Assembly (NCBI GenBank): GCA_051294905.1
Contig: CM119383.1
Span: forward strand, 5,456,001-5,520,000
Origin: Botryllus schlosseri
Taxonomy: Eukaryota
Reading direction: 5' to 3'
Length of the DNA stretch: 64,000 nucleotides
The notes under the pieces are model-generated. The model was given only the letters and a program-made list of their open reading frames with translations. It did no database searches and was not told the origin of the DNA. Positions 29,570-53,000 of the stretch are shown one piece after another. The position numbers and the translations under genes were made by a program. Each line of letters starts with the position of its first letter. Position 1 is the stretch's first letter.

Positions 29570-30128
29570 TTTATTACGCATAAAAGTTACATGTCCACTG
29601 TTAAGACGTCATAACGAGTGGCATTCGATTCGTTACTCAGTTTTGTCAGTCCCTAGAAATAACCTAGCGTAGGAACTCGTATCCTACTGAGTAGTTCACT
29701 AACTACGTAACTCTAATTTCCATACTGAGAACGCCAGACAAGTACAGCTACACTAGGGTTACCATATTTTTGTGGAGCAAATTCCGGACACTCTTTAGCG
29801 CCCACTAGCGGATTTTAAAATGAGGTATAACACATTGTCTGTCAATATGACGTCACACTAGCAAGGCATTGCCCATCGACTGTATACAGCAGGGGTGGGC
29901 AAACTACGGCCCGCGGGCCGCATGCGGCCCGCAACACCGTTCTGTGCGGCCCGCGAAAGAAACATTTTTAAATATTGATAAAATGCGTATTAAAAATCGA
30001 ATTAATGCAGGGACTTGCTTACACTTTTTCTTGGTATATTTCACCTTGATCATTCTAAGACAGTGGCTCTCAAACTGGGGGCGCGCCCCCCTTGGAGACG
30101 TGAAAGCATCTGATGGGGGCGCGAAGCT

Positions 30129-30264
30129 AGTAGTGAGGTTTGATCAAATATACGCAGGCCAATCCCAGAAGGCCACGTCGCCTTAATTGCCACGCCTACA
30201 TTGCCACATCATCCACCCATTGCCGCACCTATAGGACGCCCCTTGCCACATCATCCACCCATTG
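30129..30264 (+). repeat. Polinton left TIR (136 bp)
   Basis: Reverse complement of 46891-47026 with 4 mismatches; TGCCACATCATC repeats continue subterminally. Confidence 0.95.
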
Positions 30265-31059
30265 CCGCACCTATAGCACATCCATTGCCACATCATCTGT
30301 GCCACATCATCAAGCGCCACACCTATAGTGACACATCATCCATTGCCACATCATCACCGCATTGATTGCCGCATCTATATGGTGCACAGCGCCGCATCAA
30401 CCAGCGCGATGTCGATTGCTGCACCTGTGACATTCATTGCCACGTCAAAACTTACCTCAGCTAGAATCGAACCTGGTTTGGTTGGGTATAATTTCATGTC
30501 GCTCACCACCAGGCTATTGAGCAAACTAGCCGTATTGAGCTGTTTTGAGAATATAACCGCCGATTCTCTCTTAAATTCCGAGACAACACCTTTTTCGAGT
30601 AATAACACATAAATGTAAGACTATGTTCGTGTGTACTATAACACCCAATGATTTTGAGGAATTCTGCGAATGCAACTTGATAATGCAGATATCACAACCA
30701 TAACTGCCCGCAATCATGCGGTAGCTCATGCGCCGTGCATATTGCCGAATACTATTCCAAGAAATTGACGCGTGTGAATGTGCCACGAATACAGTTGCTT
30801 ACGATTCCAAGAAGTCGAGCCACATCGACAATGTGAATTAGAACATTATAAATAAAGTTGCGTTTCCAAGAAAATGCCGCGTGGCGATCCGAATTAGAAT
30901 GTTTACTTCCGACGTAAAGCAATTCGCATTCTGAAAACTTCGCATTTCTGATACAAGTATTGTCGTGTGCGCAGCGAATGAGCCAGGCATCGCAGACAAG
31001 GTAAGATCAATGTATTTTCGTGTCAATTTAAACTAAATTCAGCTATAATTTCTCGAAGC

Positions 31060-33488: not shown

Positions 33489-33944
33489 TTACACAATTTC
33501 ATTTTCTTGCTTCAGCTCCTTGACGAACCGTCGCACGATCGAATCATTCTTGCGGTGATCTTCGCCGATGGAATTTAAATAACGTTCCGTGCTCCATCCG
33601 CGCGCCTTATGGACGATAAAGCTTAGACAATGATGACCGCAAGCTCTGGAACGTTTGTGCTGCAGACGCTTTATGGAGCAGGTATAATTTTCTGGTTCTA
33701 TAAAGCACGCAATCTCGTATTTCAGCGGCATTAAGCCAAAGCTATCGTGAAAATGTGTCTCATCCTCATCCGCGTAAATGCATATCCAGTGACTTCCGAT
33801 TTTTCGAGCCTCGTCATAATTGATCACGATAGCATAAGGAGGAGGGGGTCGCCTCGGCAGTCGATCGATAGGAAATGTACCAAGGAAAATATGTTTTGTT
33901 GACTCGCAGCACCACAATATTTGGTCTATTTCATCCCCGTTCAT
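33489..33944 (-). CDS. Adenain-like (adenovirus-type) cysteine protease
   Basis: GSHW, DSFG, LQ...ACGHHC give the His-Asp-Gln-Cys catalytic set; ORF intact. Confidence 0.93.
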   Translation of the reverse strand: MNGDEIDQILWCCESTKHIFLGTFPIDRLPRRPPPPYAIVINYDEARKIGSHWICIYADEDETHFHDSFGLMPLKYEIACFIEPENYTCSIKRLQHKRSRACGHHCLSFIVHKARGWSTERYLNSIGEDHRKNDSIVRRFVKELKQENEIV

Positions 33945-35219
33945 AGCACGGTCACTTTACGACTGCTACTGATTTGCAATAGCTTCTGGAATTCCATGAA
34001 ACAGAGCAAAGTAGTTTCCGCTGTTAGCCCGCCAGCAGGAAATGTGATCCGTAAACTTAAGGTACCACTCTTTTGTAAGTCAAAGCAATCATCCAAATCA
34101 TCAGGGCGCAAATTATAAACCAGTAGACAGAAACCACTAGCGAACTCTTCAGGCGTTAGGAGTCCTCTGTTTTTCTCCATTGCACCCGTACCCTCAATCA
34201 GGTTATGGTAAAGCTCCGTGTAATGACCCTTATCGAAATCTAGCTCATAACCTCCCTCCGGAATCAGAAATCCGTTCAGTTTCAGTTCGAGTCGTTGCAT
34301 ATTATTGTGTATGAAATTATAAGGATTTTTCGTAACATCTCCTTGAAAGGCTTTCGTAGCTACCATTCCGATGATTAGGCGAGAAGGTAGAGTCCCACTA
34401 TATAGATTCCCGATATCTATCTGCGTCGTAGCAGCCGCAAATGTTCGGGGTGATCAACTTCATGTCGATATACGGATATTTCGCCTGGGCATTAACCATC
34501 ATCGCTGTCTTCACATCGTCGCTGACTCGTACGCTACATAACTGTAATTCCTTTTTCGTTAAGGTGAATTGACCGGTAGCATCTCCCATCATGAAAAAGC
34601 TTTTCGGATTCAAGGTAAGCTCAAACTCGAGAGGCACGTCATGTAGGATGTAGCGGTCTTGCAGACATAGTCCGTGATGGATTTTCGCACGTATTTCCAC
34701 CACGTTATCATCCTTATAGGCTTTACTCCTGTTGTAATATCCTTTGTTAGCCGAGGCGTTAGTTCCACCGATCGTATCCATTTTTCCTAAAGTATCCTTT
34801 CTCCATCCTGAGGCCCTGAGTGTGGTATTTTGCACGTCGAGCGGAGTGAATAAATTGTGCAGATAGGACGAATAACACTGTACTTTTATATCTTGTTTCA
34901 AAGTTTCGTTAGCGACTTTAATTTGTAGTTGAGAAATCAAGGAATCCAAGATATTATTTACAACACCAACATCATCATCCGGACCAATTGCTTCGCCACC
35001 TTTCTTTAATTGTAAATGAAATAAGAAATAGCTCTCGCTCAAATCGATAAAGTCTTCTGAGCCCTCAAAGCGGAATGTTATCACACTAGAGTTGTTCGAA
35101 ATCGGCGCTATCTTGATGATTCTTTTCTTTTCTACGCTAGTCTGTGTCGCGGGAATGTGAAATAAATCCAATGAGGGATGTACCCCCTCTGGAGACTGTA
35201 CATGAATTAACTCCGCCAT
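33941..35219 (-). pseudogene. Double jelly-roll major capsid protein, frameshifted at ~34440
   Basis: N part LDLFHIPATQTSV...FIDLSESY; C part GNLYSGTLPSRLIIGMV...KNPYNF...FDLQKSGTLSLRITF; frames join at AAC ATT T GCG. Confidence 0.88.
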
Positions 35220-35268
35220 CTATCAAGTCTCAAGTAACAAATGATGCTTATCGTCGTGTAATATATAT

Positions 35269-35640
35269 TTAATCGAAAATATCTTTGCGACGTCTCTTTT
35301 TCGCGATCTTACGACCCCGTCTTGGCATTTTTCTTTTTCTCAGTAAAGAATCGAGAGCGTTCCCAGCGGCTTCTTTTCCGCGTATTTTAAGACTATCGCC
35401 GACATTCTCTCCATTTAGAACATCAGAGGCTACTTGCGCACCGGTATGTAGTAGACGCTTCCCGAGTGATTTTGCACCTATCGAAATTAGGGGCATAACG
35501 CTTCTTCCGAACGAACGAAATAAGTTTCCAAGTCCATGACCTCTCTGCACTTTACCCCGAAAAAAATTGATATCACCACCGCTCTGTTGGTGATAATAGT
35601 TTCTGAACGCCTCCCGATCACAGCAATAATGACTCCTCAT
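35269..35640 (-). CDS. Conserved Polinton basic core/membrane-lytic-like protein (QRGHGLG motif)
   Basis: YYHQQSGG...QRGHGLGNLFRSFGRSVMPL amphipathic helix, Arg/Lys-rich tail ending KDIFD. Confidence 0.8.
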   Translation of the reverse strand: MRSHYCCDREAFRNYYHQQSGGDINFFRGKVQRGHGLGNLFRSFGRSVMPLISIGAKSLGKRLLHTGAQVASDVLNGENVGDSLKIRGKEAAGNALDSLLRKRKMPRRGRKIAKKRRRKDIFD

Positions 35641-36340
35641 GATGTCTCAAAGCAAGTGTGAGATGAAGAGGCGCGTTCCCAAACTTTATAGCTTCGCCTT
35701 TATCATCACGAAGCATAACGCGTATCTCGCTTACTCGCTCCGTATTCAGAGGAAAGAAATATATTTTTTTGAATAGCATATGCTGATATTCATCTATTCC
35801 TGTCGTAACGCGGATATTGCGTAGTAGAGGCGCACACGTATCACCTACAATTTGAGGTGTGATGACATCCGTATAAACTAAAACGTTGGTCACGGGCTCA
35901 GTTTCCCCTTGAAAGTGAATTTTTCTTCGTCTATGTAATCCACCATCTAGCTCTACCTCCGAACGAGCGCCTCCTCTGAGAACGGGGTTTCTATTATCCA
36001 TGAAAAGTCTCGGACCGCTGGAACTCTTGTAAGGTCCCGCTATCAAGACCGGACCAGAACCATCTACCCAAATAAACCTTGCTTTTTTCTGATCGTGATT
36101 GATACGCTTCATCAAACTAATTTTATCATGATAATCACCAGGCGGGAAATAATAAAAATTATTATCGCCTTCCGCATCATTCACGTACCATAATAAGCCA
36201 TCGTAAGGCTCGAACGTGGGCTGAAAATTATTTTTAAAAGACAACTCGGCAAGCCCTATCTCCCATTCACCAGAATCTATCGGTTTCGCGAGATCGATAG
36301 TAAAATCAGACTCGTGTGACGTAATATGAATATATTTCAT
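35618..36340 (-). CDS. Penton-like minor capsid protein 2
   Basis: DFTIDLAKPIDSGEWEIGLAELSF; LVYTDVITPQIVGDTCAPLLR; IRVMLRDDKGEAIKF...LTLALR. Confidence 0.85.
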   Translation of the reverse strand: MKYIHITSHESDFTIDLAKPIDSGEWEIGLAELSFKNNFQPTFEPYDGLLWYVNDAEGDNNFYYFPPGDYHDKISLMKRINHDQKKARFIWVDGSGPVLIAGPYKSSSGPRLFMDNRNPVLRGGARSEVELDGGLHRRRKIHFQGETEPVTNVLVYTDVITPQIVGDTCAPLLRNIRVTTGIDEYQHMLFKKIYFFPLNTERVSEIRVMLRDDKGEAIKFGNAPLHLTLALRHHEESLLL

Positions 36341-37145
36341 AATGCAACTCCCCGTCTACGAAAATGCAATACAACACTCGAAGGAGAACTTCGAAAGGGT
36401 ATTTTCTCACCCTTCTCATCAAGTAGCGATATTTCGATGCGTTCTAGCCTATTTATATTAACAGGGAAATAAAAAGGCTTCGTGTAATATTTCGAAAATG
36501 ATTTACGATTGTTCACCTGTACGACCGTAACAACGGTAAGAGCCTACCGCTATCTTCTTGTGGCTCAATGATATTACAATGAACATAAACGAAATCGATA
36601 GTCGGATCATGTCGCATGCGAAAGTTCAAATGAATGATACCCTCAGTGAAAAAATAATTCCACAATGTACAATTAGTATTCGGGAAATGAAACGCCAATA
36701 ACTCCTCCCTCGTTTCCTTACGCATAAGAGCACCGTACAATTCTCCGCGGAGTAGCAAGCTACTATGCCCTATGTCCGTCTCTGGTCGCAATTTGTCGGT
36801 TACCTCGTTATGAGGTACAGAGATAGACATACTATGATTTTCAGGGAAACATGTTACTTTTGCATAAGGATTGTCTCTTTCCAACGATCTATACAGGTCG
36901 TATAACGAGTCGTATTCTCCCAATTTAAAATGAAAGTTTCTTGCTCTCTTTTGCGTTCTGATCCCATACCTATTCTTCGTGATCCTATACTGTTTTTGAT
37001 AATCCGTGGGGAAGGAGATCTCAGCCAGAGAAACTTCTGTATCTTCCACGTTTTTCGGGACGTCCAATTCAACGCAATAACTCGCTGTTGTATTATCAGG
37101 AAATTTATCCATGGAAGCGTTCGAAAATAGCGTGACGTAGCTCAT
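36337..37145 (-). pseudogene. Penton-like minor capsid protein 1, frameshifted at ~36524
   Basis: MSYVTLFSNASMDKFPDNT...EVSLAEISFP; FVYVHCNIIEPQ...LPLLR continues in a shifted frame as VQVNN...IEISLLDEKGEKIPF...VVLHFRRR. Confidence 0.85.
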
Positions 37146-37351
37146 ATTTTGAGCTTGGGATTCGGAAGCATATAACCAACGCAAGAGGAGAGCAGTGATA
37201 TCCAAAGCTCTTTGTTCCCATTCGAAATGGTAAGATTATAGAGAGAGAACGATACGATGACCAGTATGATTACTAGTTGCGCCAAAAACTGATAAAGGTT
37301 CCGACTAGACGATATCCTTCTTATCGACCCAGCTGTCGAATCCACTTCCAT
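37142..37351 (-). CDS. Small Polinton transmembrane protein
   Basis: FLAQLVIILVIVSFSLYNL...LWISLLSSCVGYMLPNPK; stop overlaps the next start (ATGA). Confidence 0.75.
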   Translation of the reverse strand: MEVDSTAGSIRRISSSRNLYQFLAQLVIILVIVSFSLYNLTISNGNKELWISLLSSCVGYMLPNPKLKI

Positions 37352-38303
37352 ATCCCAACCAGCGTACTAAATACTGTTCTCGTCCCGCGCGTTTACGCCT
37401 TCTTATAATCTTCTCGACACGCCAAGCTTGCGGTTCTTTTACGCGTTGGAGCTCCTCTCTATAAAATCTACCCTGGATGACTTCACCACCGTAATCACGT
37501 AAGCGATACATTGGGGGATCCCCCTTTTGGGCGTCTGCGATATAGAAAATTTCGCGTTGCCAGTTGGGTAGGCTGCTTTTCTCAAAAAGATTTCGAATTT
37601 TCGATATACGGACGGGTACTCCTACAGCGAGGTCGGGTTGTTTAGCTTCTTGAAACCCGTAAAGTCTTCTCCAAACCGATTCCTGATTAGACGAATTCAC
37701 TTGGTTGGGGGCCATAGCAATGCTACGATGGTACGTCCTGTTGTAGGAGTAAGTAAAGTCATCGAGGACGTTCACGTAATACCTCGTGTTATTTTTTGTG
37801 AAAAATCGATACATAATCGCTTTCATACTACGAATCACCCTTTCGACGACAGACGATTTTAATTCGCTCCTCGTATAGAAATATCTAACTTTGTTCTCCT
37901 TTAGATAGTTCTGGAAAGAGCGATTGGTATATTCGCTACCTTGATCGGTTTGTAACACTAACGGTACGCGTTCACGAAACACACGTTTGAAAGCAGAAAT
38001 CATACTTGAAGCAGTTTTATTTTTAATCGCTATCATCCAAAGGTATTTGCTAAAAATATCAATCACCACCACCACAAAACGAAAACCGCTATTGTACTTT
38101 GAAATAGATTGCAGATCCATCAAATCGCTCTGAAACTGAGCATTGATACCGGAGACCACTACACGTTCACGCCTAAATTTCTTACGTAACGGAAAATGAA
38201 AAGTATAAGTATCTTGTCCTTTAAGCCATTCTTTTTCCTTTTGCAAATAAGCGCCCCTATACGATTTGGGCTGTTTCGGATCAAAATAGTCTACGTCTCC
38301 CAT
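37305..38303 (-). CDS. Retroviral-type (rve) integrase with C-terminal chromodomain
   Basis: QSDLMD, VIDIFSKY, LQTDQGSEY, SSVVERVIRSMK (DDE); chromodomain WRVEKII...YLVRWLGYGSGFDSWV; intact. Confidence 0.95.
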   Translation of the reverse strand: MGDVDYFDPKQPKSYRGAYLQKEKEWLKGQDTYTFHFPLRKKFRRERVVVSGINAQFQSDLMDLQSISKYNSGFRFVVVVIDIFSKYLWMIAIKNKTASSMISAFKRVFRERVPLVLQTDQGSEYTNRSFQNYLKENKVRYFYTRSELKSSVVERVIRSMKAIMYRFFTKNNTRYYVNVLDDFTYSYNRTYHRSIAMAPNQVNSSNQESVWRRLYGFQEAKQPDLAVGVPVRISKIRNLFEKSSLPNWQREIFYIADAQKGDPPMYRLRDYGGEVIQGRFYREELQRVKEPQAWRVEKIIRRRKRAGREQYLVRWLGYGSGFDSWVDKKDIV

Positions 38304-38629
38304 TCTTTCCCGTATATACGGGGATTAGGCTTACGCTGTCTCTTATAAAGCCAGGGAAACGAAGGTTGTGGAATCCGGCGCGGGCGTTTCTTTTGCGGGC
38401 GCTTTTCTTTCGCTACGGGGCTCGCGAGCCCCGTGTGTGCGGCGGGAGGGCGGGTGGTCGCTGCGTCTACGTCTTTTCTCAGGTTTCTCAGTTGAGCAAT
38501 ACCATGCCTATACAGAGCTAGTTTCTCGGAAGCATTCAATTGAGAGCTTTTAATTTTCGATATATGTTTATCAAATTTCTTTTCCCATTCGTCCTTGCTT
38601 CGAAATGCGGGGAATTGTAGTTCACGCAT
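38291..38629 (-). CDS. Polinton hypothetical protein (112 aa)
   Basis: ORF overlapping both neighbours in the compact gene array; EKLALYRHGIAQL helix, basic C terminus. Confidence 0.65.
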   Translation of the reverse strand: MRELQFPAFRSKDEWEKKFDKHISKIKSSQLNASEKLALYRHGIAQLRNLRKDVDAATTRPPAAHTGLASPVAKEKRPQKKRPRRIPQPSFPWLYKRQRKPNPRIYGKEWET

Positions 38630-39029
38630 TCTTCCCGAAAAGTTTACCCAACAGACTCCCGATGACGGGGATTGCAGCGCCTAATATAGCTAAAACAGAC
38701 TAGTTAGAAAAAAGTTGCTATTTTATCATAATCTTTATACCTGAGAGGAATCCACCCTTTTGTAGCACCCTCCGTTGACCTCTGCGAGTTTTTTGCGCAA
38801 GCAATTGTCTGATATCGGATTTGTGTTTTCCAAGCCTCAACTTTCTAGATTGGGAGATACGTACTGTCCCCGAAGCCAAGTTATGAACGCACTGGCAGAC
38901 GCAACTTAAAAATTGATTGTTCGATAAAAGTTCTTTTCGCTGTTTCCCTTTAGCGTTTTTCAAAAGTTTTAATTTAACGTGATAGTCGCTCAATCGTTTT
39001 CGAGATATGTTACTTCCCCTCTTCGACAT
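38622..39029 (-). CDS. Polinton basic protein with QKGGFL motif; probable spliced gene join(38741-39029,38622-38689)
   Basis: Splicing GTATAA...CTAAC...TTTTAG (38690-38740) gives QKGGFLSAILGAAIPVIGSLLGKLFGKNA*; the unspliced frame stops at 38718. Confidence 0.75.
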
Positions 39030-39064
39030 GTTGAATGCCCTAAAATCTGCAGCGCGAGCTGTAT

Positions 39065-39682
39065 TTATTCTTGATATACCGTCAACTTTTGATGTGGGAA
39101 TATTTTGCTGCGAAGACGATAATTTTCGTCTGTCTCTTGCGTCACGTCAACCAGTATGTACGAGAACGGTTTTCGAGTTGCCTTTTTATAAGCCTCCGTA
39201 AGGAATCCGGCTTTATCCGGGAACATTTGACGTGAAAGAAAACTGATTTAACTCGCATCACGGGGATTTTTAAATATCACGATATAGCTCGCGCTCAAGG
39301 TCATATCCCGAAAGCCTTGGCCCCTATAGAAGAGGTTCTGACAAATGAACACCACGCTGATCTTTGCGTGATGACTGTATCGAGTGAATAGATCTCTGGC
39401 CTCTTTCGCTTCCGTCATCATGTCGTCGATCACCAAGAGAACGTGCCTATTTCCTTTCTGTAACTTTTTGAGCTCGGAGAGCCCTTGCGAGAATTCTACC
39501 CCTTTCATTTTATCGTACAACGCCTGATAATTATTATACAACCATACAATTTTTTCAGGAGCCGGTCTAATCATCTTCTCTGCGTTCTTCACCAACTCAT
39601 AAGTAAAATAACTCTTCCCGCTACTGCTCGGACCAGCCACGATCATCCGAAACGGAGCATGCAATGTACGTATTCGATCCAT
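39065..39682 (-). pseudogene. A32/FtsK-like packaging ATPase with in-frame premature stop at 39248-39250
   Basis: Walker A GPSSSGKS, Walker B LLVIDD, SHH, QN, FKNPRD; same frame after TAA reads ISFLSRQMFP...AYKKATRKPFSYILVD...RLRSKIFP. Confidence 0.9.
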
Positions 39683-39685
39683 TTA

Positions 39686-42600
39686 TTACAGAGATAAAGG
39701 CAATGTATGAATTCCATCATTAAGCACAATCCTTTTATAATAACCATAACTCAATGCACTTCGATATTGCTTATACGTAAACATATCGCTCCCATAGCAA
39801 CGAAAACCGCTATTGACACCACCTGTGATCGATCTATTTTGAAGAATGCCTTTGAAATCTTTGAAAGTTTTGTTGGCCGTTTTTTGAAGCCCTTTCGAGC
39901 TGTACTTATCGCTGTCGCCTTTGCAATAATAGGTCTTGGAATTGAGCCCTATAAAGCCGTCACCGATCCATTCTTCTTTGAATAAACCCGGTATACGTTT
40001 CGAGTAATTGCGAACCTCAATGCAGCAAGCTTTATCAGTTTTAAAACCAACGGGATCTCTCTCAAAATCACATTTATGCTCTGCACATGCGCGAGCCACG
40101 AACCATTTGTCGTGACTTTCAAAAAATTGTTTTTTCATGGAAGGCTTGATGAGAGAATAGATCGTATCGGAGCTTAAGCTTATGTACGCCGAATCAGTAT
40201 CTGTTTCGAGGAAAGCCCAATCGCTATCGTCCAAATACACATGCAGACAGTCATATAGGAACTGGAGCATTCTCAGCTTGGCACAGCAGAATATAAAGAA
40301 GCCCACAATGATTGGGTTTTCGTGACAAATGTTTAGCGGACGCGTAGCTACTTCGAGCAAGCCTTCATCGCTCTTATCAATTTCAACAGCATCGACAAAA
40401 AATTTTTTTTCAACGCGCGATGGTAATTCTTCCAACGTGACGTATTCGTGTTCCCTATATTTATTGGGGTTTTGAATAGTACGGCCGAAAAGACTATTTC
40501 CAATCGTCTTCCAGGTCAATGCTTCCATTTCACGGGCTGGATCTTTTGGGAGGACATCGCCTTTGCGGCGCTCAGAGGATACTCGCTCAACGAAGGGTGT
40601 GAAAACTTGTTTTGGTTCATATTCGACAGCTTGGAATACGCGAGTCACGATCATGCCACTTTTCAAGTACCACTGAAGCAAATCCGTATTAAACAACTGT
40701 TTTTTCGTGAAATAACTAGAGCCCAAAAATTTTTTTGGAAACTTAATATTGTTTTCTTTGGCGTATTCACGCATATGTTCACCGATATCGCACTCGTTTA
40801 CTTCCATATGTTTGAAAAAAGGAGGTAACTCTTCGAATTTCGATTTTAAATGGTCGGGACAATGAATGTCACACTCGATTGCACCGAAAAATGACCCGTC
40901 TAGCGTGCGCTTGAGCAACTGCGCCTCAGTGAGATAATAAGCTTTCGTGACTTTACGCTCGAACTTTGAGACAAATTGCGCAATTTCAGGGTCTCGTTTC
41001 ATATTCGTCCAAACGCATTCCTTCATACGGATAACGGTATATCCCAATTTTTCCAAATATTCCGTGTTTTGTTTGGTGAGTTCACGCCTCTCGGTGTTCT
41101 CTTTATCAGGGAAGCAGCTCCTACAAGCGTGGTAATAGCACCCATCGTACTGAAAGATGAGTTTACCGGCGTTCCCGTCGACAAATAGACGTTTATTTCC
41201 GATTCTCACTTGACTACCGTTCCACGCGTGCTGAATTTTGATGTCACGAACGTGACTTTCGTATTCCAACCATTCGCGCTCCGCATGAGTAGGCCAAACG
41301 CGCTGTTTATGGAATTTTTGCTTTTCCTCATCATAAATCCACCTTATAGGGTAACCCGTTGGCATATTTTGATTTATGCATTGCAAATAGAGGGCATTTG
41401 CGTCATATCCTACTACTTTCTTGACGGTTTTAGCACTGTCACCGTAGCGAAGACTGCGTATTTTCGTTTCACCCGCCATAGCGTACCGTGACTAATCTGT
41501 GACAAACCTCCTACCAAGTTGTTCAGAATCGTTTCGTGAAGGTCAGCATTGGCCTTATTCAGAAGAGTGATATCATAGCAATCACGAAACATCAGTCTAC
41601 TCGCTATATTCGGAAGGCTCACGTTACCCTTGAACATATCGATGCCAAGCGTTTTGTAAAATTCGAAATTGTTAGTTAGCGCGGTTAAGAAGCCAATGAC
41701 ATCACCTTCGTTGTAATATCGGAGAAAATCACGGAATGTGGTCATACCCTCGCGTTCCCATACAGCGACGCATTCTGCGTATTGCTCTTCCGTTATATTC
41801 GAATTGCGGGACGCGTTGTAAAACGATTCATGGCTCGGTAGCGACGTTTCATCGAGGCGCTCGATGCTATCGAGATATTCGTAGGGGAAATAAAATTTTG
41901 CGTTCACCCCATCCCCGTATAGCTTCATGTACGCATCCGAACTATAACCCGGACTCAGGAATAGCGAAATGTCCAGAAATTTTAATCTGTGCGTTGCGAT
42001 TGTCAAATAGGCGCTGTTCCTTTTCAAAACAAAGAATCCGCTTTCCTTGTGCAAGGATTTGATTAGATATTTCTTGCATAAATTCAGATCGTAGCGCGAG
42101 GAATTGAAACCGATTATGGGTATCTGATCGAGCCACGTATGGAGTCGAAGCGAGATATAATCCAAATAGGATCTTCTATTAGTGGGATCGAGCAAGTTCC
42201 GTTCTTCAATCAAATTCTCAAGTTCGATTATCTCATTGCCGAAAGATTCTCGCATTTCGGCTGAGGCGAGTTCCTGTACGCGATAAATTTCACCGATCAT
42301 TTCATCGATTAACGTCTGCGGGCAACCGTCAGATATGAAAGTTTTAGTTTCATTCGTTACGTTATTTGATAAGGACACGGAGACGGGGACGTGCCTATTA
42401 ACGTATTCTACTTTTGCAGAATTAGCTCTGAGCTCATCCTTCACGAGCATGGATTCGAAGTCAAAACACATACGGTACGGGAAGAATCTCTTTTGGTTCT
42501 CAACGAAAATGCCTTCGGATTCCAATTGCTCGAATACGGTGGGTTTCGGTCGATATACACCGCTAGCATATTTCCGCCCTTGGGATGTTTTGCATTCACG

Positions 42601-43563
42601 TTTTAGATGTCGCTTCAAATTTCCCTTTGTTGAGAAGAAAACTTTACATGAATCACAGAAAAATGTCTGGGAATAAAGTTCGATATTTGTGATCAGGCAA
42701 GAATGAGCACTTTCCATGTGTATATGAACCGCTGGCCCATCCGCTTCGGATTGCCGCAATATAAATGCTTGATGATCACGTTTTTCATAAACAACTATCT
42801 TTACGTGAAAACATTCCTCGAATTTGCTTAATTCATCAAGTGGTACCCCATCATCTACAGGCATACGATATCGTTCACGAAATTGAGATACCAATAGTCC
42901 AACATGCTTCTCATCTCGTTTTTTCTTGATGAAATGGGATAAGCAACGGAAGAGGCATAACGAATCGTTCAGTTGTGTTCCGTCCTGATGTCGAATAAAC
43001 GTCATAATATGACGACATTTTGTTGCCTCGCTCGATATCGATGCACTAGGGCAGCCCAATAAAACTCGGGGCATTTCATACAAGAAAAATTGAATATGTA
43101 ATATAGCAACGCAATAAAACTTAGTGTTTGGTCTGGCTTGTCTCGCTTGTTCGTAAGCAGCTGATAGATCGATTTCGTTGATGAAACTATCAAAGTCCCC
43201 GCGTGAAAGTATAGGTCTCGGGAGATCCAAAACAGCATGGGTTGATTGCGGATGAAAATAGCTATGTCTTTCTGTCTCTCGATTAAACAGCAGGAAGCCA
43301 TATGCATAGTTCACTTTAAATTGTCGCAATCTTCTCGGGTATATCGATGACATGCGCGCATGAATATCACCCATACCTCTTGCGAGCAGACGTTCATTGA
43401 TCACCTCTCTTGCACCCCTCGCAACCCTCCTGCTGTTAATCCATTCGGAATCGATAATCGAGTTGGAGTGCGATTGCAAAACCTCTGTTGCGTCGTTATC
43501 AAAACCGAGCGAGTCATCGATGATGAAGCTAGCATCTTCCTCGTAGCGTCTTCGACGAGCCAT
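39686..43563 (-). pseudogene. Protein-primed DNA polymerase B, single frameshift at ~41487
   Basis: Exo FDFES, GFNSSRYD, YNEGDV; pol YDANALY, KTIGNSLFG, ETDTDS, NSKTY; C2H2 finger in the N part; inserted QYDGCYYHAC nuclease-like domain. LVGGLSQISH joins RYAMAGETKIR by restoring one C. Confidence 0.93.
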
Positions 43564-43595
43564 ATATTTTAACTATATTCTGCAAAAATACACAT

Positions 43596-43967
43596 TCATA
43601 AATTTATTCCATATTTCAAACGCAATTTACACTTGAAAGCTTCATAAAGGAACAGAAATTTGATATTTTCTAAGTTACGCAGTTCATCAGCGTTGGGAGC
43701 AAATTTATCGATATCTTTAAGCACGTTTTTTGCTATAACGAGAAAATCTTTTTGCCATTCGCCATATCCTTCCAATGAGACCATTTTTCGCCAAGTAGCA
43801 ACTCTCTTGATATCATCATCAACGAAACCTTCAAAGGTAGCGGTCGTAGCATCTCGCGTACGTCTTGTGTCTCCCGCACCGTATTGTTGTAACAACATAT
43901 TTAGATCTTTACCACAATTATAAGGTTCCATATTAATCTGAGAAAACGAATTAAATATACCAGTCAT
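43596..43967 (-). CDS. Polinton orphan protein (~123 aa)
   Basis: ATG at 43967 overlaps the end of the upstream ORF; helical composition; no family recognised. Confidence 0.55.
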   Translation of the reverse strand: MTGIFNSFSQINMEPYNCGKDLNMLLQQYGAGDTRRTRDATTATFEGFVDDDIKRVATWRKMVSLEGYGEWQKDFLVIAKNVLKDIDKFAPNADELRNLENIKFLFLYEAFKCKLRLKYGINL

Positions 43968-45186
43968 TGTACTGCCGTTTGAGCTCATCGAATTTGGCGT
44001 AAAATTCACGTGCATGCACATCGTTTTCAACATAAGAGGAATCGCTCTCAAATTCGGAATCTGACGGTATGAATGTACGAGCAAATATATCATGTATAAT
44101 TTTACGGCGAGCATGCTTATTCATCTCAGGCAAGTAGGAAGGATAACACTGATTACCAAATCGGATAATCACTGTGCTAGATTGAAACATCCCTCCCAAA
44201 TTGCGTAACATAACATCACTACCATTCTGAATTTCAGATACGAGCCAAAACGACGACGGCTTTACTTGTCCGTAAGCGGACTGCAAATGATTGCGATGAA
44301 TGTACATAATAGCTTCTTGCAACATCTTGTTATCGAAAAATAGAGACCCGCAATTGCGCATCACTGAAATAGATTTCTCGGTACTGTGAAATTTGAATGC
44401 CTCTAGATTTGGATGAAAAGGATCTAGGAAGTTGGTGATATCGTCAGAGAGCAACAAATCGATCAATACTTCTTTCCCTGTTTGATTTTTACCTTCTATA
44501 AAGAAGTGGGGCGCAAAATATTTCTTATGCATATGGCCCTCCATTAGGGTGATGATGAACACAGCCCGGAGAAAATTAGGGCTCCGTTTTCGATCAACAA
44601 ACAACACCTCCTCGATATTCTGCTCGAGAGAACGGAAAAATAGTATACCGTCATCAATCGTAAGTAGAGGGTAATCCAAATTATAAATCAGACCATCAAA
44701 CTTTTCCTCGTCCAATACGTTATTAGCGATACGACGTCGCTTATTGCGAAAAGGGGACGAATAAACTCTCCATGGGGCGATGATCGGTGAGTGAGGCGGG
44801 CTTTGAGCGCTGGTCACAGCTGTCGAGTTATCAGTACTCTGCGGAGGCGTAAATTGAACACCAATTGGTAGTATGCTGTTATCAAAGTCGAGTCTGCGCT
44901 TAGGTTTAGGTTCGCTTGGTTCCGGTCGTGGTATACCGATATTGATTGGTGTCATCACGACAGCTGAGGGAGCCTCATCAGATTGCGCCACTGCCTCATC
45001 AATAATTGTTACGTCATCATCACTAGCTTCCGTCTCTTTACTCTTTTCAGCTGCAATCGTAACTTCGATCAATTCTGCATCGACATCGGAATCGAAATCA
45101 CCAATCGGTAATGTATCTGCTTGATTATCAGGAATCATAGTTGTTGATTCGCTAACTACGTCGTTTGCTTTCTCCATTGTCGACAT
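43951..45186 (-). CDS. 411-aa protein: acidic/Pro-rich N terminus plus possible degenerate SF3 (NS1-like) P-loop domain
   Basis: Long ORF with a TATA box 40 nt upstream; FFIEGKNQTGKE resembles Walker A. Confidence 0.7.
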   Translation of the reverse strand: MSTMEKANDVVSESTTMIPDNQADTLPIGDFDSDVDAELIEVTIAAEKSKETEASDDDVTIIDEAVAQSDEAPSAVVMTPINIGIPRPEPSEPKPKRRLDFDNSILPIGVQFTPPQSTDNSTAVTSAQSPPHSPIIAPWRVYSSPFRNKRRRIANNVLDEEKFDGLIYNLDYPLLTIDDGILFFRSLEQNIEEVLFVDRKRSPNFLRAVFIITLMEGHMHKKYFAPHFFIEGKNQTGKEVLIDLLLSDDITNFLDPFHPNLEAFKFHSTEKSISVMRNCGSLFFDNKMLQEAIMYIHRNHLQSAYGQVKPSSFWLVSEIQNGSDVMLRNLGGMFQSSTVIIRFGNQCYPSYLPEMNKHARRKIIHDIFARTFIPSDSEFESDSSYVENDVHAREFYAKFDELKRQYNDWYI

Positions 45187-45491
45187 CCTTTTTGCGGTAT
45201 AGTTTAGTTCGGATTCGAGCCTCTCTTATATAGTGAACTACATGCGCTTTGCACGCGGAGAGCGCGTGATTGTACTCGTGGCATTCTTACTAGCATTCTA
45301 ATTATTGATAACACGTACCAGGAACGGATATGAGCTACGTGTCTTTTTCTGTGAGCAGTCGACGTTCTAATTTCCGTGATACGACCTCGGGGCCTATCAT
45401 TCGATCGGTACCAAGCACATTTTTCAATGGTACATAGCTCAATATCTATATAAAGCATACTGATCATGAGAGTATATCAATTCGGATAGCA
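45187..45491. promoter_or_regulatory. Putative bidirectional promoter of the Polinton
   Basis: TATATAAG on - at ~45225-45232 and TATATAAA on + at 45447-45454, each ~40 nt from a divergent ATG. Confidence 0.6.
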
Positions 45492-46073
45492 ATGTCGAAC
45501 ATTGATCAAAGCGATTCGCTACCTAAGCGTAGTGTGGATCCTACAAATTACGCTACATTCAACTGCGCTTGCATCCGTACCACGAGTAGCATAGAAATAA
45601 GCGAAGATGAAACTCGGATGGGTCCCATTGAGCAGTACCAAGCTATGATAAATAACAGAGGGGAAAAGATTTATGAATGCTATGCGAAGCATAGAGATGT
45701 AACTGTCTCCCCGTTGAATGATCCTGTTTTCTATAACATGGTACGCTATGCTCGTAGACTAAGCACATTTATGCGGTGGCCGGATAATATCAATACCTCT
45801 GGAGCCGAGCTCGCAGACTGTGGATTGTTCTATTTGGGCTATAAGGATCATTTAAAGTGTTTCTCATGTGGAGGGCTGTTTCAAAATTGGTTGTCGTGCG
45901 ATGACCCCTGGCTCGAGCATGCAAAGTTTTATCCTACGTGTCCTTTTCTCATAAAGCGCAAGGGGTTGCAATATATTCGTAATGTCTGTTATGCGACACC
46001 TAATATAAGTAGAGGCTCGACTAAATTTGATGGCGAGGTGGAATTGCGTGATGACTGTTGTACTTATGTTTGA
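45492..46073 (+). CDS. Single-BIR-domain inhibitor-of-apoptosis-like protein, no RING
   Basis: RLSTFMRWP...LADCGLFYLGYKDHLKCFSCGGLFQNWLSCDDPWLEHAKFYPTCPFL with exact CX2CX16HX6C spacing. Confidence 0.92.
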   Translation: MSNIDQSDSLPKRSVDPTNYATFNCACIRTTSSIEISEDETRMGPIEQYQAMINNRGEKIYECYAKHRDVTVSPLNDPVFYNMVRYARRLSTFMRWPDNINTSGAELADCGLFYLGYKDHLKCFSCGGLFQNWLSCDDPWLEHAKFYPTCPFLIKRKGLQYIRNVCYATPNISRGSTKFDGEVELRDDCCTYV

Positions 46074-46089
46074 TATTTCTTTTCAAAGA

Positions 46090-46572
46090 ATGAGTCTAGC
46101 AATCCGTGGAGATACTATTCTGCCCCAAGGGCCCTATAGAAAAGACTTGTATCTTTTTAATGACATCACAAAATTACGTATCGAAGCCTCGAATGGGGCA
46201 GAATTGACCTCGGATCAACTCTTTGTACATTCCACTAACGGGACCATTCAGAAATATCGAGCCACTCTGAAGCATGAAGGAGGTTTGGTCGTTACCTATA
46301 CTCGCGACGGGATCGAGCATTATCAACCTCTGAACCCGGCTGACGAATTCGTCATCTATTCACCCAGCGTAGTTGTTCCTAATCCCGACCTTCCGCTCGT
46401 ATCGTACATACTACAAGCCAGTGATCGCTACATCAAACAAAACGGTCAGATCGAACGCAAGAACCCGGGTCGCAGCGTCGGATGGCAGCAAAGCGGTGTA
46501 CCTCGAAACATCAACCGATCTGGAGGATTTCAGCACGCGAATCGACGCAATAACGATCAACGATATCATTGA
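46090..46572 (+). CDS. Polinton orphan protein (~160 aa)
   Basis: ORF directly after the IAP gene, preceded by acceptor-like TTTTCAAAG and followed by AATAAA (46589); beta-rich N part, basic low-complexity tail. Confidence 0.6.
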   Translation: MSLAIRGDTILPQGPYRKDLYLFNDITKLRIEASNGAELTSDQLFVHSTNGTIQKYRATLKHEGGLVVTYTRDGIEHYQPLNPADEFVIYSPSVVVPNPDLPLVSYILQASDRYIKQNGQIERKNPGRSVGWQQSGVPRNINRSGGFQHANRRNNDQRYH

Positions 46573-46890
46573 TATGCTCTTTTTTCGAAATAAAATGAAC
46601 TCGTACACTATACAAGGCTATTTCAATGAGACTGAGTAAAGTGTTAGAAGATATGAAAAGGGTCGTATGAAATGCGGTGACTACAGGGATCGAGCCTACA
46701 ACCTAGAGCAAGATAGTTGGCTGATTCCTCTGTGATGACGTCGTGAAATCTAGTTCAACGATTAGTGTAGCGAGAATTCTTATTCTCAAAAAACAGCTTA
46801 GTACACATAATCATGATTATGTGGCAATGGGCGTTATATAGGCGGATGATGTGTTAATGGCCGCGGCTGATGACGTAGCAGATGATGTGA

Positions 46891-47026
46891 CAATGGGTGG
46901 ATGATGTGGCAAGGGGTGTCCCATAGGTGCGGCAATGGGCGGATGATGTGGCAATGTAGGCGTGGCAATTAAGGCGACGTGGCCTTCTGGGATTGGCCTG
47001 CGTATATTTGATCAACCCTCACTACT
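46891..47026 (-). repeat. Polinton right TIR (136 bp)
   Basis: Ends ...CCTCACTACT; see left TIR. Confidence 0.95.
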
Positions 47027-49307
47027 GAAGCTGAGCTCGACTGATGAAACTTTTCGCACTCCGCGCGATTTACATCCGATTCATATCTATTGCTCTGTAT
47101 GTAATCTGAATTTCATATTTCAAAATCTATCATCCGTAGTCGTAACCTTCCATGCCATCAAACTATCCGTTTGGTTTGCTTGCATCCTGGTTGCGTTTTG
47201 TGAGATGACGATAAGGGTGGCGCGAAATCCGTCATCATCAGAGGGGGGGTGGGGGGGCGTGTCTTAAAAGTATGAGAACCACTGTTCTAAGGTACATACT
47301 TCCTACGTTGTTTTATGTTTAATTTCTGGCGCGACAGCCCGATCTCAAGGCCTTCGCAGTTTGAAAGGTTCAACTGCTAAACATCACAGAAATCCTAAAC
47401 GAGATTGACATAATTCGGATCGCGAGTGGGATTTCAGATTGGCCACTCCAGTTTAATTATTTCAGTGATGTGCTAATAAAAAAGGATTCGCGCGTGTCTT
47501 AGGTAGATCCGTTCTCTATATGCGTAGACTTTGGGTATTCATATTTTATTTTCACGTCGTAGAAGCGTGTTGGGAGCTAAAATGGTTATGATGCTGTCCA
47601 CATTGTGTGTCCTGGAACTGAACCAAAAGCAGAATTAGTAAATCTATGAACAGATCGCTGCTCACAGATTTAAAGTTCAATCCTACTCTAAGAATCGGCA
47701 CAACCAAGCTTCATCTCTAATAGTTTTGACAAATCGGTTATTGCGGTCGAGCAGCCTATGAAATCTCGCCGCTATATGTTTCTGACGCGTGCACGATATC
47801 ATCAAAGCAATCAAATCAATTCAGTTTGTTTTAAATGAGCACATATCTCCATGTCCTCACTATATAATCAAATAACAATATTGCATTTTGGTTTATAATT
47901 CCAATTTTACATAGTGCGGCCCGCGAATGGATTCAGATGTTGAATGCGGCCCGCGAGCTCAAAAGTTTGCCCACCCTTGGTATACAGGAATGGAGTGGGA
48001 TGTAGGTCATGGATTGGGCCATCTGTAATGTGAGCTCTGGTGATTGCTACTTGCTAGGGTCTGCAATAGATTCCTCCACGGGCCGGATGAAATCATCTGA
48101 CGGGCCGTGTCTGGCCTGTCAGGATTGTGTTTGACAGCCCTGCTATACTGTTAGGTCGGTGCGGCCTAAGTGACTTTGCCCTAAGCTACACTCAATCTTT
48201 AATCACAACAACAACAATATGAACATGCTCTCTGACTGGCACCTTTTGAGCGTGCAAGTCAGAGCGGTACGAATGTATCAGAATGTTAATATTCGAACAG
48301 TAACGCGTCAGGAATAAGCGTAATACATTTACGAGTCGCGATCGCTTGGATAAAGTTTGTAGGTGTATTATGTGCAGCTACAATAGGCCTACTTCAACAA
48401 AGTAATTAATGGCAATGGCCCCGACCGAAGTCGAACCGCGAGTAGGGCTGGGCACAATGATTCGGGAACTCGAATCTGAATCGAGTATTATTTTAAATGT
48501 TTCGAGTCGAGTACTGAAATTACACGCTCCTTGTAACCAGTGTTGGGATGACTCGAGTCACTTTTTTCGTATGACTTGACTTGACTCGAGTCACTTTGCT
48601 AAAATGACTTGACTTGACTTGACTCGGCGTATCAGAAATGTGGATTGACTCGTGACTTGGAGCAAAATTCACGAGTCAATTTCAAGTCATCAAGTAATCG
48701 GTGTCGATAAAAATCACTGTATCTTGCATATCTTCGGATTGTTCACGAAACGCTGGTGTAACCTAGGGTTACCATATTTTGGTGAAGCAAATTCCGGACA
48801 CTCTTCAGCGCCCACTGGCGGATTTTTAAATGAGCTGTAACTCATCGACCGTCAATATGATGTCACACTGGAAAAGCATTGTCCATCGACTGTATTGTAT
48901 ACACTATACAGGGATGGAGTGGAACATAGGTCATGAATTGGGCCATCTGTAACGTGAGCTCTGGTGATTGCTACTTGCTAGGGTCTGCAGTAGATTCCTC
49001 CACGCGCCGGATGAAATCATCTGGAGGGCCGTGTCTGGCCTGTCAGGATTGTGTTTGGCAGTCCTGCTATACTGTTAGGTCGGTGGGCTATCTGTATATG
49101 TGTTTTAATCATATCCGAAACAACATTTTTCTCCTCCCCCTCTTCCGCCCAAAAAAGCACTGATCTTGGGCCCACCATAGGATAGTCGATGTAACTTGTT
49201 GGGCACTTACTATATACATTTGGCTGTTAAATTTTATGTATGAATTGTGCCAATAATATTGATTCTTCCATATATTAGGCTACTATAAAATGCACCAGCA
49301 TGTTGCA

Positions 49308-50037: not shown

Positions 50038-53000
50038 TGTAATATAGTTCAATGTATTTAAAAACGTTTCAGTAAAAACCGCACAACCAGTCCTCTCGCC
50101 TTCGAGCCCGTTCTGTCGATCGCGTGACAGGAGCGTCGGGAGCACACACATAATCATTACGTTAATCACAATCACACTTCCCCTTGATCTAAAGATCACA
50201 TGGGAAACCAACACATAACGCAACGATGTAACTTCAAACGTGAAAATCAGGTGAACAATTCTAAAACAGTGTATAGCCTACATGAAACGGCAAACTTCCC
50301 CTTGGTCTGAAGATCGCACGGGAAGCCAAGTCAACGTGATAAATGTGGACACAAAAACAAACTAATACGCAGTGTACACATATCGATACATCAAATTGAA
50401 AGTTAAATTTCGATATATGCCTGTGATCTATTGACGGGGACGGGGAGTCATATGGTCTTCCTACCCCCGTGATATATTGATCACTGGCCCAAATTCAAAG
50501 CTTTTGAGTGTAACCCCGCAGTGTAGCCTATATAGGCCAATGGGCCAATTCTGAATAAATTAACACGAGTCGTTCGCTATTAGAAGCACACAAAGTGGAT
50601 CCCACAACTAAAACATACTGGCGTACAAAAAACGAAAAACTGCGGTGTAGGTGTGCCTCAAACGATGGACGAAAGCGATGATAACTGGAATTTGTAGCAT
50701 ACAGAATTCGTACTTGAAGGCTAAAACTTGCAAGGTATATGCAATCATCACAAGGCATAAGCATTTACGCGCGAACAAATCAAAATGTAAAAAATCACTT
50801 ATTCTTAGTACAGATATACTCAACATCCAGCCTACATAAAAGTCAGCCAACCATTGTGGCGGCGCTCGATCCCGATTTGGTCGCGAATGGTCAGAGTTAT
50901 TTCTCTCAATATCATGGTCGACATTGTCATCACCAGGTTGATCCAGATCAGCTGAGTTATTCCCATCGGTGATATTCTCTTCCGTACCGACTGGGTCAAT
51001 AGCTTCACCCGAGTTACCGCTGTTTTCCGTATCAATGGCATCATCTTCTCTGCTACAATTCAAGTCGATTTCGCGCGACGTAACACTTCCTCCTGGTGGG
51101 TTAGGTAGATCCCCGACGGCGAGTCTAACGTCAGAAAGATGTCGATTCATCCCGTCAACCTCGACCACCACGTCGGCGACAACCCTGGTAACGACACCTC
51201 TATTCCATTGAGTAGTACATCGAGCATTTGGTGGCTTCACGAACACTACATCACCGACTCGGTATGGGTTGGAACTATTTTGTCGGTCCAATCTCTTTCT
51301 GCTTGCGCGGATCATTGAAGATGGCAAACCAGATTCATAGCGAAACACCTTATCCGCAGGTACAATATCCTCCGAATTCGGAGTGTGATTGTACCAATAC
51401 ACCATTCGTTCAACACTACCTCCAGATCTCGCGGCCATTCTTTTGATAGTTCTGTGATTCCGCTCCACAATACCATTTCCAGAATGCCGGTAGGCGCAGC
51501 TGAACACATGTTCCACCCCCCAACTGTTCAAAAACTGGCGCATTTTCTGACTAGTAAAACAAGGTCCGTTATCACTCAGAATTTCACTCGGCGCACCTCT
51601 TTCCGAGAAGACTTGTTCAAGGATCTGGATGATTTTATCGGCCGTTTCATTTCGCACCGCCCGCCATATCGCAAATCGACTAGGCCCGCAGTCGATCAAA
51701 CTCAGGTATGGTCGAGTGTTTACGTAAGTAATGTCAAGTGCCAGGCGCTCCCAGACAACGGGAACGGAAAGCTGCCCGTGTTCCCATCTCACGGGACTCG
51801 GATCAATTCTGCGACAGATGTTGCACTCATTGATTACTCGTTGAACAACATCACGAGTAACAGCTTCGCCAATGCTTCTTTTGGCCACGAAAAGCGTCCG
51901 ATTCACACCTAGGTGATGCACGTTATGAAGAGCCCGTACCTGTTCAATCACGTTCTCATTACGCCGGTTTACTCCAAGACACACCTTCTTTAGCCAGCGT
52001 TGCGGGACTCTCGTTAGTGCATCTGCGAGATTCTCCGACGATGGTACCCAACGGATTGTGACCTCCATGCAGTATTCCTGAAAGAGCTGCGCGATAATTC
52101 CCAATCTTCTTTTAATAATCATTTCACTTAGCCCACTGACTCTAGGTCGACGCGAATCTTCCAATATTGACTTGACCCAATGGAACACACTGACCGAGTC
52201 GGTCACAACTTCTACATTAGTGAAACCCCATCTCAGCATCAAACTTAATCCCTTTACGACAGCGTCGAGCTCCGCGACATTTATATGCGTTCCGTCGTCC
52301 TCTTTCCTCATCCATGCTGCATCTTCGACAACCTTCCCATTTACGGTCAAACAGCATGCCACCGCCATATTGCTCGCATCGCACCAAATTTGCGCTCTTC
52401 CATCACGATATACTCTCCAGTCCCCTCTTACTGGATCGTTCTCTCGTACCTTCGTCAAGATTTCTTCAGCCAAATGCATAACTGGATTCGGGATTACCGC
52501 ATCCCACGCTATCTCGTTAGTAAGTCGTTTTACATGACTGCATGCAGTTCTTAACCACCCGGCCACGGGATAATGCCCTGTGAGCTTGCCGAACACAGAA
52601 AATAGCCCTCTCTTCGTCATGCGGCCGTTCAAACTCGGCAGGTCACCATCTCTCCTCCACTCCAGTACTCCATTCTGGGTCTCATTCACCCGCAATCCAA
52701 GTACACGTGCATCACGTAACGGAACTGGATCCTTCGTCGCTAACCCATAACTTGCCAAATGCCTGCGCACTTTCTCAACAGCTACAACATTCTCATCAAC
52801 CCAGATGTCGTCGATGTAATGGTCGGTTCCCCTTGCTATGTCGTCTTCCAGTGACAATACGGTAGAAATGATCTTGGTCATCACCTTTGGGCCGATGTTC
52901 AAACCGAACCCCATTCGTGTCATAACGTAAACTTTTCCTTGATGCCGCACTACTTGGAATTTTTGCAGCCTCTCGGACACGTGAATCTGTAGGTATGCCT

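Follow-up and report, generated by a model that had tools for sequence, protein, structure and literature searches.

A single-BIR gene and an orphan gene form an old, selected accessory cassette at one end of a Polinton clade in Botryllus schlosseri

IAP cargo in Polintons has already been published. Homologues of Bcl2 and IAP were observed in adintoviruses (Starrett et al. 2021, PMC8502044), and Supplementary Figure S2 of that paper contains two IAP map labels, which by the text layout stand next to the entries for Mytilus and Pinctada; the domain architecture of the genes, their copies, selection on them and any partner gene are not treated in the available parts of the paper. A224L of ASFV, as described in the available parts of PMC5618007, is a dsDNA virus protein of ~200 aa with one BIR and no canonical RING, which inhibits caspase 3, activates NF-kB and is dispensable for virus yield. 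The IAPs of baculoviruses, iridoviruses and entomopoxviruses are likewise virus-borne BIR proteins, and the proposed action of viral IAPs is the neutralisation of antagonists that carry an IBM (PMC3972657, PMC5618007, both available in part); among them Op-IAP3, from lytic insect viruses, has two BIRs and a RING and stabilises a host IAP (PMC5618007).

The gene described here, which encodes a 193-aa protein with one BIR (BIR193) and is followed by an orphan gene, is a variant of this published cargo. Like the adintovirus genes it is an IAP homologue on an integrase-bearing, Polinton-type animal element, and Bcl2 occurs in both settings; it differs from what the available parts of PMC8502044 present in being a RING-less single BIR found in five subfamilies, with a measured dN/dS and a paired orphan without known family. 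BIR193 resembles A224L in domain content, size and kind of carrier, a likeness drawn from the published description (PMC5618007, in part); A224L, however, has a C-terminal four-cysteine finger and shown inhibition of caspase-3, whereas BIR193 ends in a short CCTYV tail. In contrast to Op-IAP3, it has a single BIR and no RING and is known from an integrated element. In the literature searched, which covered few subscription journals, we found no description of a single-BIR gene together with such an orphan in Polintons.

The element and its two right-end genes

The window that we analysed is a stretch of 64,000 nucleotides from Botryllus schlosseri (assembly GCA_051294905.1, contig CM119383.1, positions 5,456,001 to 5,520,000 of the forward strand), and positions below and in Table 1 are those of the window. 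Two GH6 matches above the Pfam cut-off agree with a tunicate host, GH6 being linked to the cellulose synthase of tunicates. The BIR and orphan genes form the right end of a 16.9-kb Polinton and lie on the + strand, with the core ORFs on the − strand. Polintons, or Mavericks, are marked by terminal inverted repeats with AG-repeat-like ends and by a 6-bp target duplication. The window element has the inverted repeats and the 6-bp duplication together with a retroviral-type integrase and a packaging ATPase. The integrase (332 aa) is whole in the window copy and matched PF00665 (E 4.9e-13) plus a chromodomain in Pfam; the ATPase ORF, which is shortened, matched Pox_A32 (Pfam, E 2.8e-9); and the capsid ORF, which is split, gave a double-jelly-roll-like Pfam match below the cut-off (E 0.003). 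The protease-like ORF reached E 0.5 to ASFV S273R, which is no significant match, and the polymerase-like region, also split, had no polymerase match in Pfam, PHROGs or plasmids. We take these two to be protease and polymerase from sequence motifs and, for the polymerase, also from its position and from the 1292-aa ORF of sister copies. The 411-aa ORF (−) is the core ORF nearest the promoter region. Two other repeat features were seen in the window: three to four imperfect direct repeats of ~495 bp, 85-99% alike, in the left arm of the element (31061-32724), and an LTR retrotransposon at 50608-54774 (−) with an intact 1388-aa gag-pol ORF (zinc knuckle, protease, RT, RNase H, integrase).

Table 1. 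Features of the Polinton and its gene pair, in window positions
Feature	Position	Strand	Remarks
Left target-site duplication GAAGCT	30123..30128	.	6-bp duplication flanking element
Left terminal inverted repeat, begins AGTAGT	30129..30269	+	141 nt, 96% complementary to right repeat
Core Polinton unit	33489..45186	−	protease-like, capsid, integrase-chromodomain, A32-like ATPase, polymerase-like and 411-aa ORFs
TATA box, leftward unit	45225..45232	−	~46 nt upstream of 411-aa ORF
TATA box, BIR side	45447..45455	+	~43 nt upstream of BIR ATG
BIR-only IAP (BIR193), 193 aa	45492..46073	+	BIR domain at 45756-45950; no RING
T-rich tract ending AG, predicted splice or trans-splice acceptor	46074..46088	+	in 5/5 subfamilies
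Orphan, 160 aa	46090..46572	+	predicted all-beta domain, residues 1-125 (pLDDT ~90), disordered tail
AATAAA, predicted shared polyA signal	46589..46594	+	after orphan
Right terminal inverted repeat	46886..47026	−	141 nt, 96% complementary to left repeat
Right target-site duplication GAAGCT	47027..47032	.	copy of left duplication

An earlier note on this DNA had described an intact BIR with exact zinc-ligand spacing and no RING, and our results agreed with it. The sole Pfam match of BIR193 was the BIR family PF00653 at residues 89-153 (E 3.7e-18, 66 bits, cut-off 22.9); the zinc ligands are C123, C126, H143 and C150, with the spacing C-x2-C-x16-H-x6-C, and Pfam detected no RING. The best PDB matches were NAIP and the peptide-binding BIR3 domain of cIAP1. 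Groove positions were assigned by aligning the zinc ligands to XIAP/cIAP1 BIR3 (3uw4), using the numbering of PMC6360406, the available part of which gives G306, W310, an acidic residue at 314, E/Q319 and W323 as lining the IBM groove of BIR3. BIR193 is like cIAP1 and XIAP BIR3 (3uw4, 3d9t) in its zinc ligands and at 310, 314 and 319: the equivalents of XIAP-BIR3 W310, E314 and Q319 are W133, D137 and E142, of which W133 and E142 are kept in all 30 copies and D137 in 29. It is unlike them in having Leu (L129) at G306 and Phe (F146) at W323, both in 30/30 copies, so that three of the five groove positions are kept, and in having no tandem BIRs, UBA or RING. According to the available part of PMC8917759, a strict type II BIR has E or Q before the zinc His and W or H three residues after it; BIR193 has E142 but Phe at position 146 and, judged by its residues, belongs to the 'type II-like' class of that source, not to strict type II.

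Read from its first ATG, the second ORF spans 46030-46572 (180 aa). The start of orphan homologues corresponds to the second ATG (46090) or to the residue before it, the exception being one near-identical fragment called further upstream; therefore the length of 160 aa, as the earlier note had it, is correct. The orphan had no family match in Pfam, PHROGs or Atlas, and nothing better than E 0.73 was found among PDB sequences. When its profile was run against 1.84 billion proteins, six matches were obtained, of which five are real relatives; P0008 (E 7e-4) lacks the family motifs, was rejected as a relative and was excluded from the final alignment. No relative of the orphan or the BIR was found in viral_contigs, and none of the orphan relative P0005 in metagenome_contigs. 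The structure prediction that had been suggested for this ORF was run: a first model had a pLDDT of 47, and a model from a 12-row alignment had a mean pLDDT of 81, with twelve strands and no helix. Foldseek returned no match to this confident all-beta model at E<=0.001 in PDB or BFVD, and the predicted structure makes the orphan a candidate new fold. In one subfamily the orphan contains a 60-62-nt GT..AG insertion at a site uninterrupted in the others, as expected of a real spliced gene.

Sister copies, age and selection

In the BIR survey 150 matches of 628 candidates were scored, and loci at least 93% identical to BIR193 were taken as sisters. Within the scored set there were at least 47 such loci, 39 of the 47 being full-length and stop-free. 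Among sisters defined by the ATPase (>=92% identical, n=41), 39 had a BIR match less than 7 kb away on the expected side, and 35 of these 39 BIRs were full-length and stop-free (both by hand count). Pairwise dN/dS was computed for the window plus the 29 best BIR loci (n=30), a sample biased to intact copies, and one of related copies whose intervals understate the uncertainty; the BIR ORF had a value of 0.17 (codon bootstrap 0.10-0.30), with 0.08 in its BIR domain and 0.33 in its N-terminal 75 aa, and the orphan had 0.22. When the BIR ORF was read in shifted frames, the values were 1.01 and 1.90. The earlier note had pointed to sister copies and dN/dS as checks, and both came out in favour of the gene; we concluded that the two ORFs are under frame-specific purifying selection and are not chance ORFs.

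The order 411-aa ORF (−), BIR (+), orphan (+) recurs in four more subfamilies, five in total. The BIR identities of these four are 73, 51, 39 and 37% and their ATPase identities 90, 86, 64 and 67%; BIR identity thus falls in step with ATPase identity, which by this comparison indicates that the pair was inherited with the core genes. In a midpoint-rooted tree of 21 rows and 78 columns, among them four intron-bearing host BIR3 exons and two other mobile IAP families, seven Polinton BIRs grouped as one clade (support 96/100) with a long branch, the other 14 rows being BIRs of the host and of other mobile elements; the Polinton BIRs sat among the BIR3-type rows, away from the BIR1/BIR2 rows of multi-BIR IAPs. 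The comparison with host and viral IAPs that had been suggested was in this way made for the host side, where the Polinton clade is separate, the tree consisting of rows of this genome only. A protein search with BIR193 gave one match of 19 candidates, from its own family, a profile search gave 2 of 618, and a search for longer proteins 0 of 6. In the 39% subfamily four copies have no BIR and keep an orphan match (a whole orphan ORF in the three whose ORFs were listed); three of the four share the same deletion junction, which implies that the BIR-less lineage multiplied. We concluded that the pair is a real, old and selected accessory cassette at one end of an animal Polinton clade.

Other elements were seen alongside this clade. 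A more distant and more abundant Polinton family (ATPase identity 46-47%) gave at least 78 matches, none of which, by eye, coincides with a BIR among the matches listed. A gene-dense multi-copy element (L058, L059) carries an intronless IAP with three BIRs and a RING (564-583 aa; ~30 matches with 150 of 628 scored), together with an E2 fragment, an IS1595-like transposase, an LRR protein and a weak Bcl-2 match, and each arm of palindromic elements (L060-L064) contains an ORF of 382-417 aa with three BIRs and no RING.

The earlier note had further proposed that the IAP stayed intact while the replication genes decayed, and this did not hold beyond the single copy. Four core ORFs of the window copy are shortened or split, namely the polymerase-like, capsid and ATPase ORFs and one of 269 aa; the copy shares 96-97% identity with its sisters. 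Of 20 sisters fetched for their core ORFs, picked from good BIR or orphan matches, 14 retain the polymerase-like ORF at full length, 18 the integrase and 19 the ATPase; the capsid ORF was 425 aa in all five with a complete 3' end. The dN/dS of core genes was 0.04-0.16 against 0.17 for the BIR. With four lesions placed at random in 12.4 kb of coding DNA, the 582-nt BIR ORF would remain unhit with probability 0.83, and the BIR was broken or cut at 8 of 47 loci (150 of 628 candidates scored) as against 6 of 20 for the polymerase ORF, which is 6.7-fold longer. The window thus holds one decaying copy of a family with all genes under selection, and the decay contrast is a single-copy artefact.

Promoter elements and transcripts

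Divergent transcription from a shared bidirectional TATA region had been claimed for this locus. The opposite strands stand, the BIR and orphan being on + and the core on −, but there are two separate TATA boxes ~215 nt apart. TATAAA occurs 41-50 nt before the BIR start in 5/5 subfamilies, and ~30 nt downstream of it 4/5 have an initiator-like TCA. The BIR and orphan ORFs lie on the same strand, separated by 16 nt in the window, with no AATAAA between them there. A T-rich tract plus AG was found within 12 nt of the orphan ATG in 5/5 subfamilies but at only 51/1950 ATGs in element DNA, the threshold having been set after the pattern had been noticed. This acceptor-like tract suggests a two-gene transcript that would be resolved by splicing. 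In Ciona closely spaced genes are resolved by SL trans-splicing, and the pair resembles those operons, as described in the available part of PMC1488885, in that two genes on one strand are spaced by less than 100 nt and the second is immediately preceded by an acceptor. It is unlike them in that no SL-bearing read was seen here, and cis-splicing or leaky scanning may apply instead; among the matches listed (16 of 32 rows) there was also no loose end at 46088.

Two single-cell runs (275 and 158 reads) gave + RNA depths of 33.5 and 15.2 in bin 46363-46800 and of at most 2 in every other bin. Depth in the BIR bin was 0.2 and 0.56, values that are uninformative if these are 3'-tag libraries, which is our guess from the read pattern. 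Some of the 3'-end reads come from palindromic derivatives that have only the 3' half of the orphan (loose ends at 46339), and such derivatives account for many paired orphan half-genes in the genome. The RNA check that the earlier note had listed therefore came out in part: there is family-level RNA at the 3' end of the unit, and it is thin over the BIR ORF. Elsewhere on the + strand, at 33681-44238, seven GT..AG joints link short exons in contigs of run X1 (two also in X23 reads). This spliced chain is antisense to the capsid and polymerase genes, runs toward the BIR cassette and has a longest ATG ORF of 81 aa; some copy may produce it as an antisense or leader transcript. The joints do not belong to a leader of the core genes, since they are on the + strand, antisense to those genes.

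Proposed function and its alternatives

We propose, with a probability of roughly 0.55, that the single-BIR protein prevents death of the host cell by serving as a RING-less decoy, with IAP antagonists or processed caspases as its targets. One TATA promoter would give rise to a two-gene BIR and orphan transcript, from which the orphan mRNA would be released at the acceptor before its ATG by cis- or SL trans-splicing. The BIR would fold around zinc and bind N-terminal IBM peptides and, having no RING, would sequester rather than ubiquitinate its targets. The host cell would then survive while the element replicates and integrates, to the benefit of the element; as this benefit could be shared in trans, the gene might be lost in single lineages. 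The orphan would likely be a second host-modulating or replication-accessory protein, independent of the BIR. The earlier note had pictured an element that blocked apoptosis like a lytic virus; the same gene would be favoured without lysis if germ or stem cells die from linear DNA and from the breaks made by integrase. In favour of the decoy are the conservation of the gene and its inheritance with the core, the kept groove positions, the PDB matches to NAIP and cIAP1 BIR3, and two precedents, namely the neutralisation of IBM antagonists proposed for viral IAPs and the inhibition of caspase 3 by the RING-less A224L. Counting against the decoy are the non-canonical groove, the four BIR-less copies, the thin BIR RNA and the loss of the groove Trp in two subfamilies, in forms of 128 and 117 aa: the 39% and 37% subfamilies have Leu where W310 would be, and in the former the acidic residue at 314 is missing as well, so IBM binding is presumably not conserved across the clade. 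In addition, DIAP1 and XIAP are described, in sources available in part, as needing their own RING in vivo, and tunicates are reported without caspase-9 and Apaf-1 (PMC13159474, in part), which would remove the classic BIR3 target.

Indirect support for a role against cell death comes from the predicted genes that relatives of the element carry. About 10 close sisters have a Bcl-2 ORF beside the BIR (E 3e-20), of 217-219 aa (L122:5791-6444 (−), L123:3980-4639 (+)). In the two Bcl-2 copies examined it replaces nearly all of the polymerase region, and integrase, ATPase, BIR and orphan remain. Genome-wide there are at least 150 Bcl-2 matches, many in inverted pairs, and the Bcl-2 dN/dS of 0.64 (0.33-1.62) is indistinguishable from neutral. 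A lone Death-domain ORF (Pfam E 3e-11) lies downstream in three other subfamilies (L054:3360-3644 (+), L056:6525-6842 (−), L118) and also occurs in many palindromic elements; the window's own element had no Death-domain match. Its nearest counterpart, at 61% identity over 74 aa, is the prodomain found in Death+caspase ORFs that lack introns (516-554 aa, at C8:2.35-2.40 Mb), and the lone ORF could possibly act as a dominant-negative caspase prodomain. At the far end of one Polinton subfamily is a metacaspase-like ORF of 246 aa (L129:397-1137 (−); caspase fold E 2e-13), whose best PDB matches are plant metacaspases (E 2.5e-7) and in which His and Cys align to the catalytic pair; the genome contains 16 matches to it, and 14 are stop-free. 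Metacaspases are not known to be typical of animals. The far end of the 39% subfamily carries a ubiquitin-conjugating E2 ORF of 156 aa (E 2e-48; L128:8947-9417 (−), L130:585-1055 (+)). A broader reading can be put forward only tentatively, namely that the clade is a still-active animal virus lineage whose modular anti-death kit (single-BIR decoy, caspase-prodomain Death-domain decoy, Bcl-2, metacaspase-like protease, E2) would be swapped among subfamilies and satellites, with the BIR and a new all-beta fold expressed as an SL-resolved operon.

There is a lesser but real chance that the BIR is instead a non-apoptotic adaptor, which through TRAF/TAB1-like, NF-kB or host RING-IAP binding outside the IBM groove would tune innate immunity or IAP stability. 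Such binding would suit the six aligned Polinton BIR proteins, in which zinc ligands and fold residues are invariant and groove residues drift, and the ~40-aa N-terminal motif ahead of the BIR that is kept in all subfamilies; the published effects of A224L on NF-kB and of Op-IAP3 on a host IAP are of the same kind. It accords less well with the acidic and aromatic groove positions, nearly invariant in the window's subfamily, or with the place of the domain among BIR3-type rows (midpoint root, 78 columns).

Returning to the element's own benefit, which the decoy reading assumes, we consider it unlikely that the gene was instead domesticated, that is, selected in integrated copies for the good of the animal while the element decays, the reading nearest to the contrast drawn in the earlier note. 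In the two single-cell runs no part of the element is more transcribed than the 3' end of the unit, and a polymerase-less sub-lineage keeps a BIR dN/dS of 0.15 (8 copies), as domestication would predict; but the core genes are constrained as much as the BIR or more, the BIR is broken or cut at 8 of the 47 scored loci against 6 of 20 for the longer polymerase ORF, and an intact BIR in the window copy is expected by chance. It is likewise quite improbable that BIR and orphan form a poison-antidote or otherwise obligate pair in which the orphan N-terminus, S-L-A-I after removal of Met, would serve as an IBM-like ligand. The two genes are adjacent in 5/5 subfamilies, and the orphan begins M-S-[LI]-A-I-R in most of them, near the IBM pattern in the available part of PMC3972657. 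However, the IBM consensus needs Ala first, and M-G-S (the 51% subfamily and P0003), S-L-C-I and S-I-C-F starts exist; moreover, the orphan persists in four copies without a BIR and its residues 2-10 are modelled as a confident beta strand, and for these two reasons such a pair is unlikely. A neutral, recent one-off capture of a host IAP exon is scarcely credible, for although the genome has host IAP genes with related BIR3 exons, the absence from sisters and near-identity to one such exon that the earlier note had named as signs of such a capture were not what we found: the BIR is present in sisters and five subfamilies with a dN/dS well below 1, has its own long branch, and shares 41-46% identity with the BIR3-type exons from the four host loci compared (150 of 628 candidates scored).

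In the available parts of PMC13159474, dispersed intronless IAP copies are attributed to retrotransposition or to unspecified DNA transposons, and Polintons are unnamed. The clade described here provides a route to such copies, dozens of which are in this genome Polinton genes and not host genes. The BIR and the orphan are small, testable proteins, and the pair bears on whether integrated Polintons act like viruses that need to counter the defences of their host. A cell-death regulator selected through the history of the clade, beside swappable Bcl-2 and Death modules, is indirect evidence that replication of the element provokes cell death.
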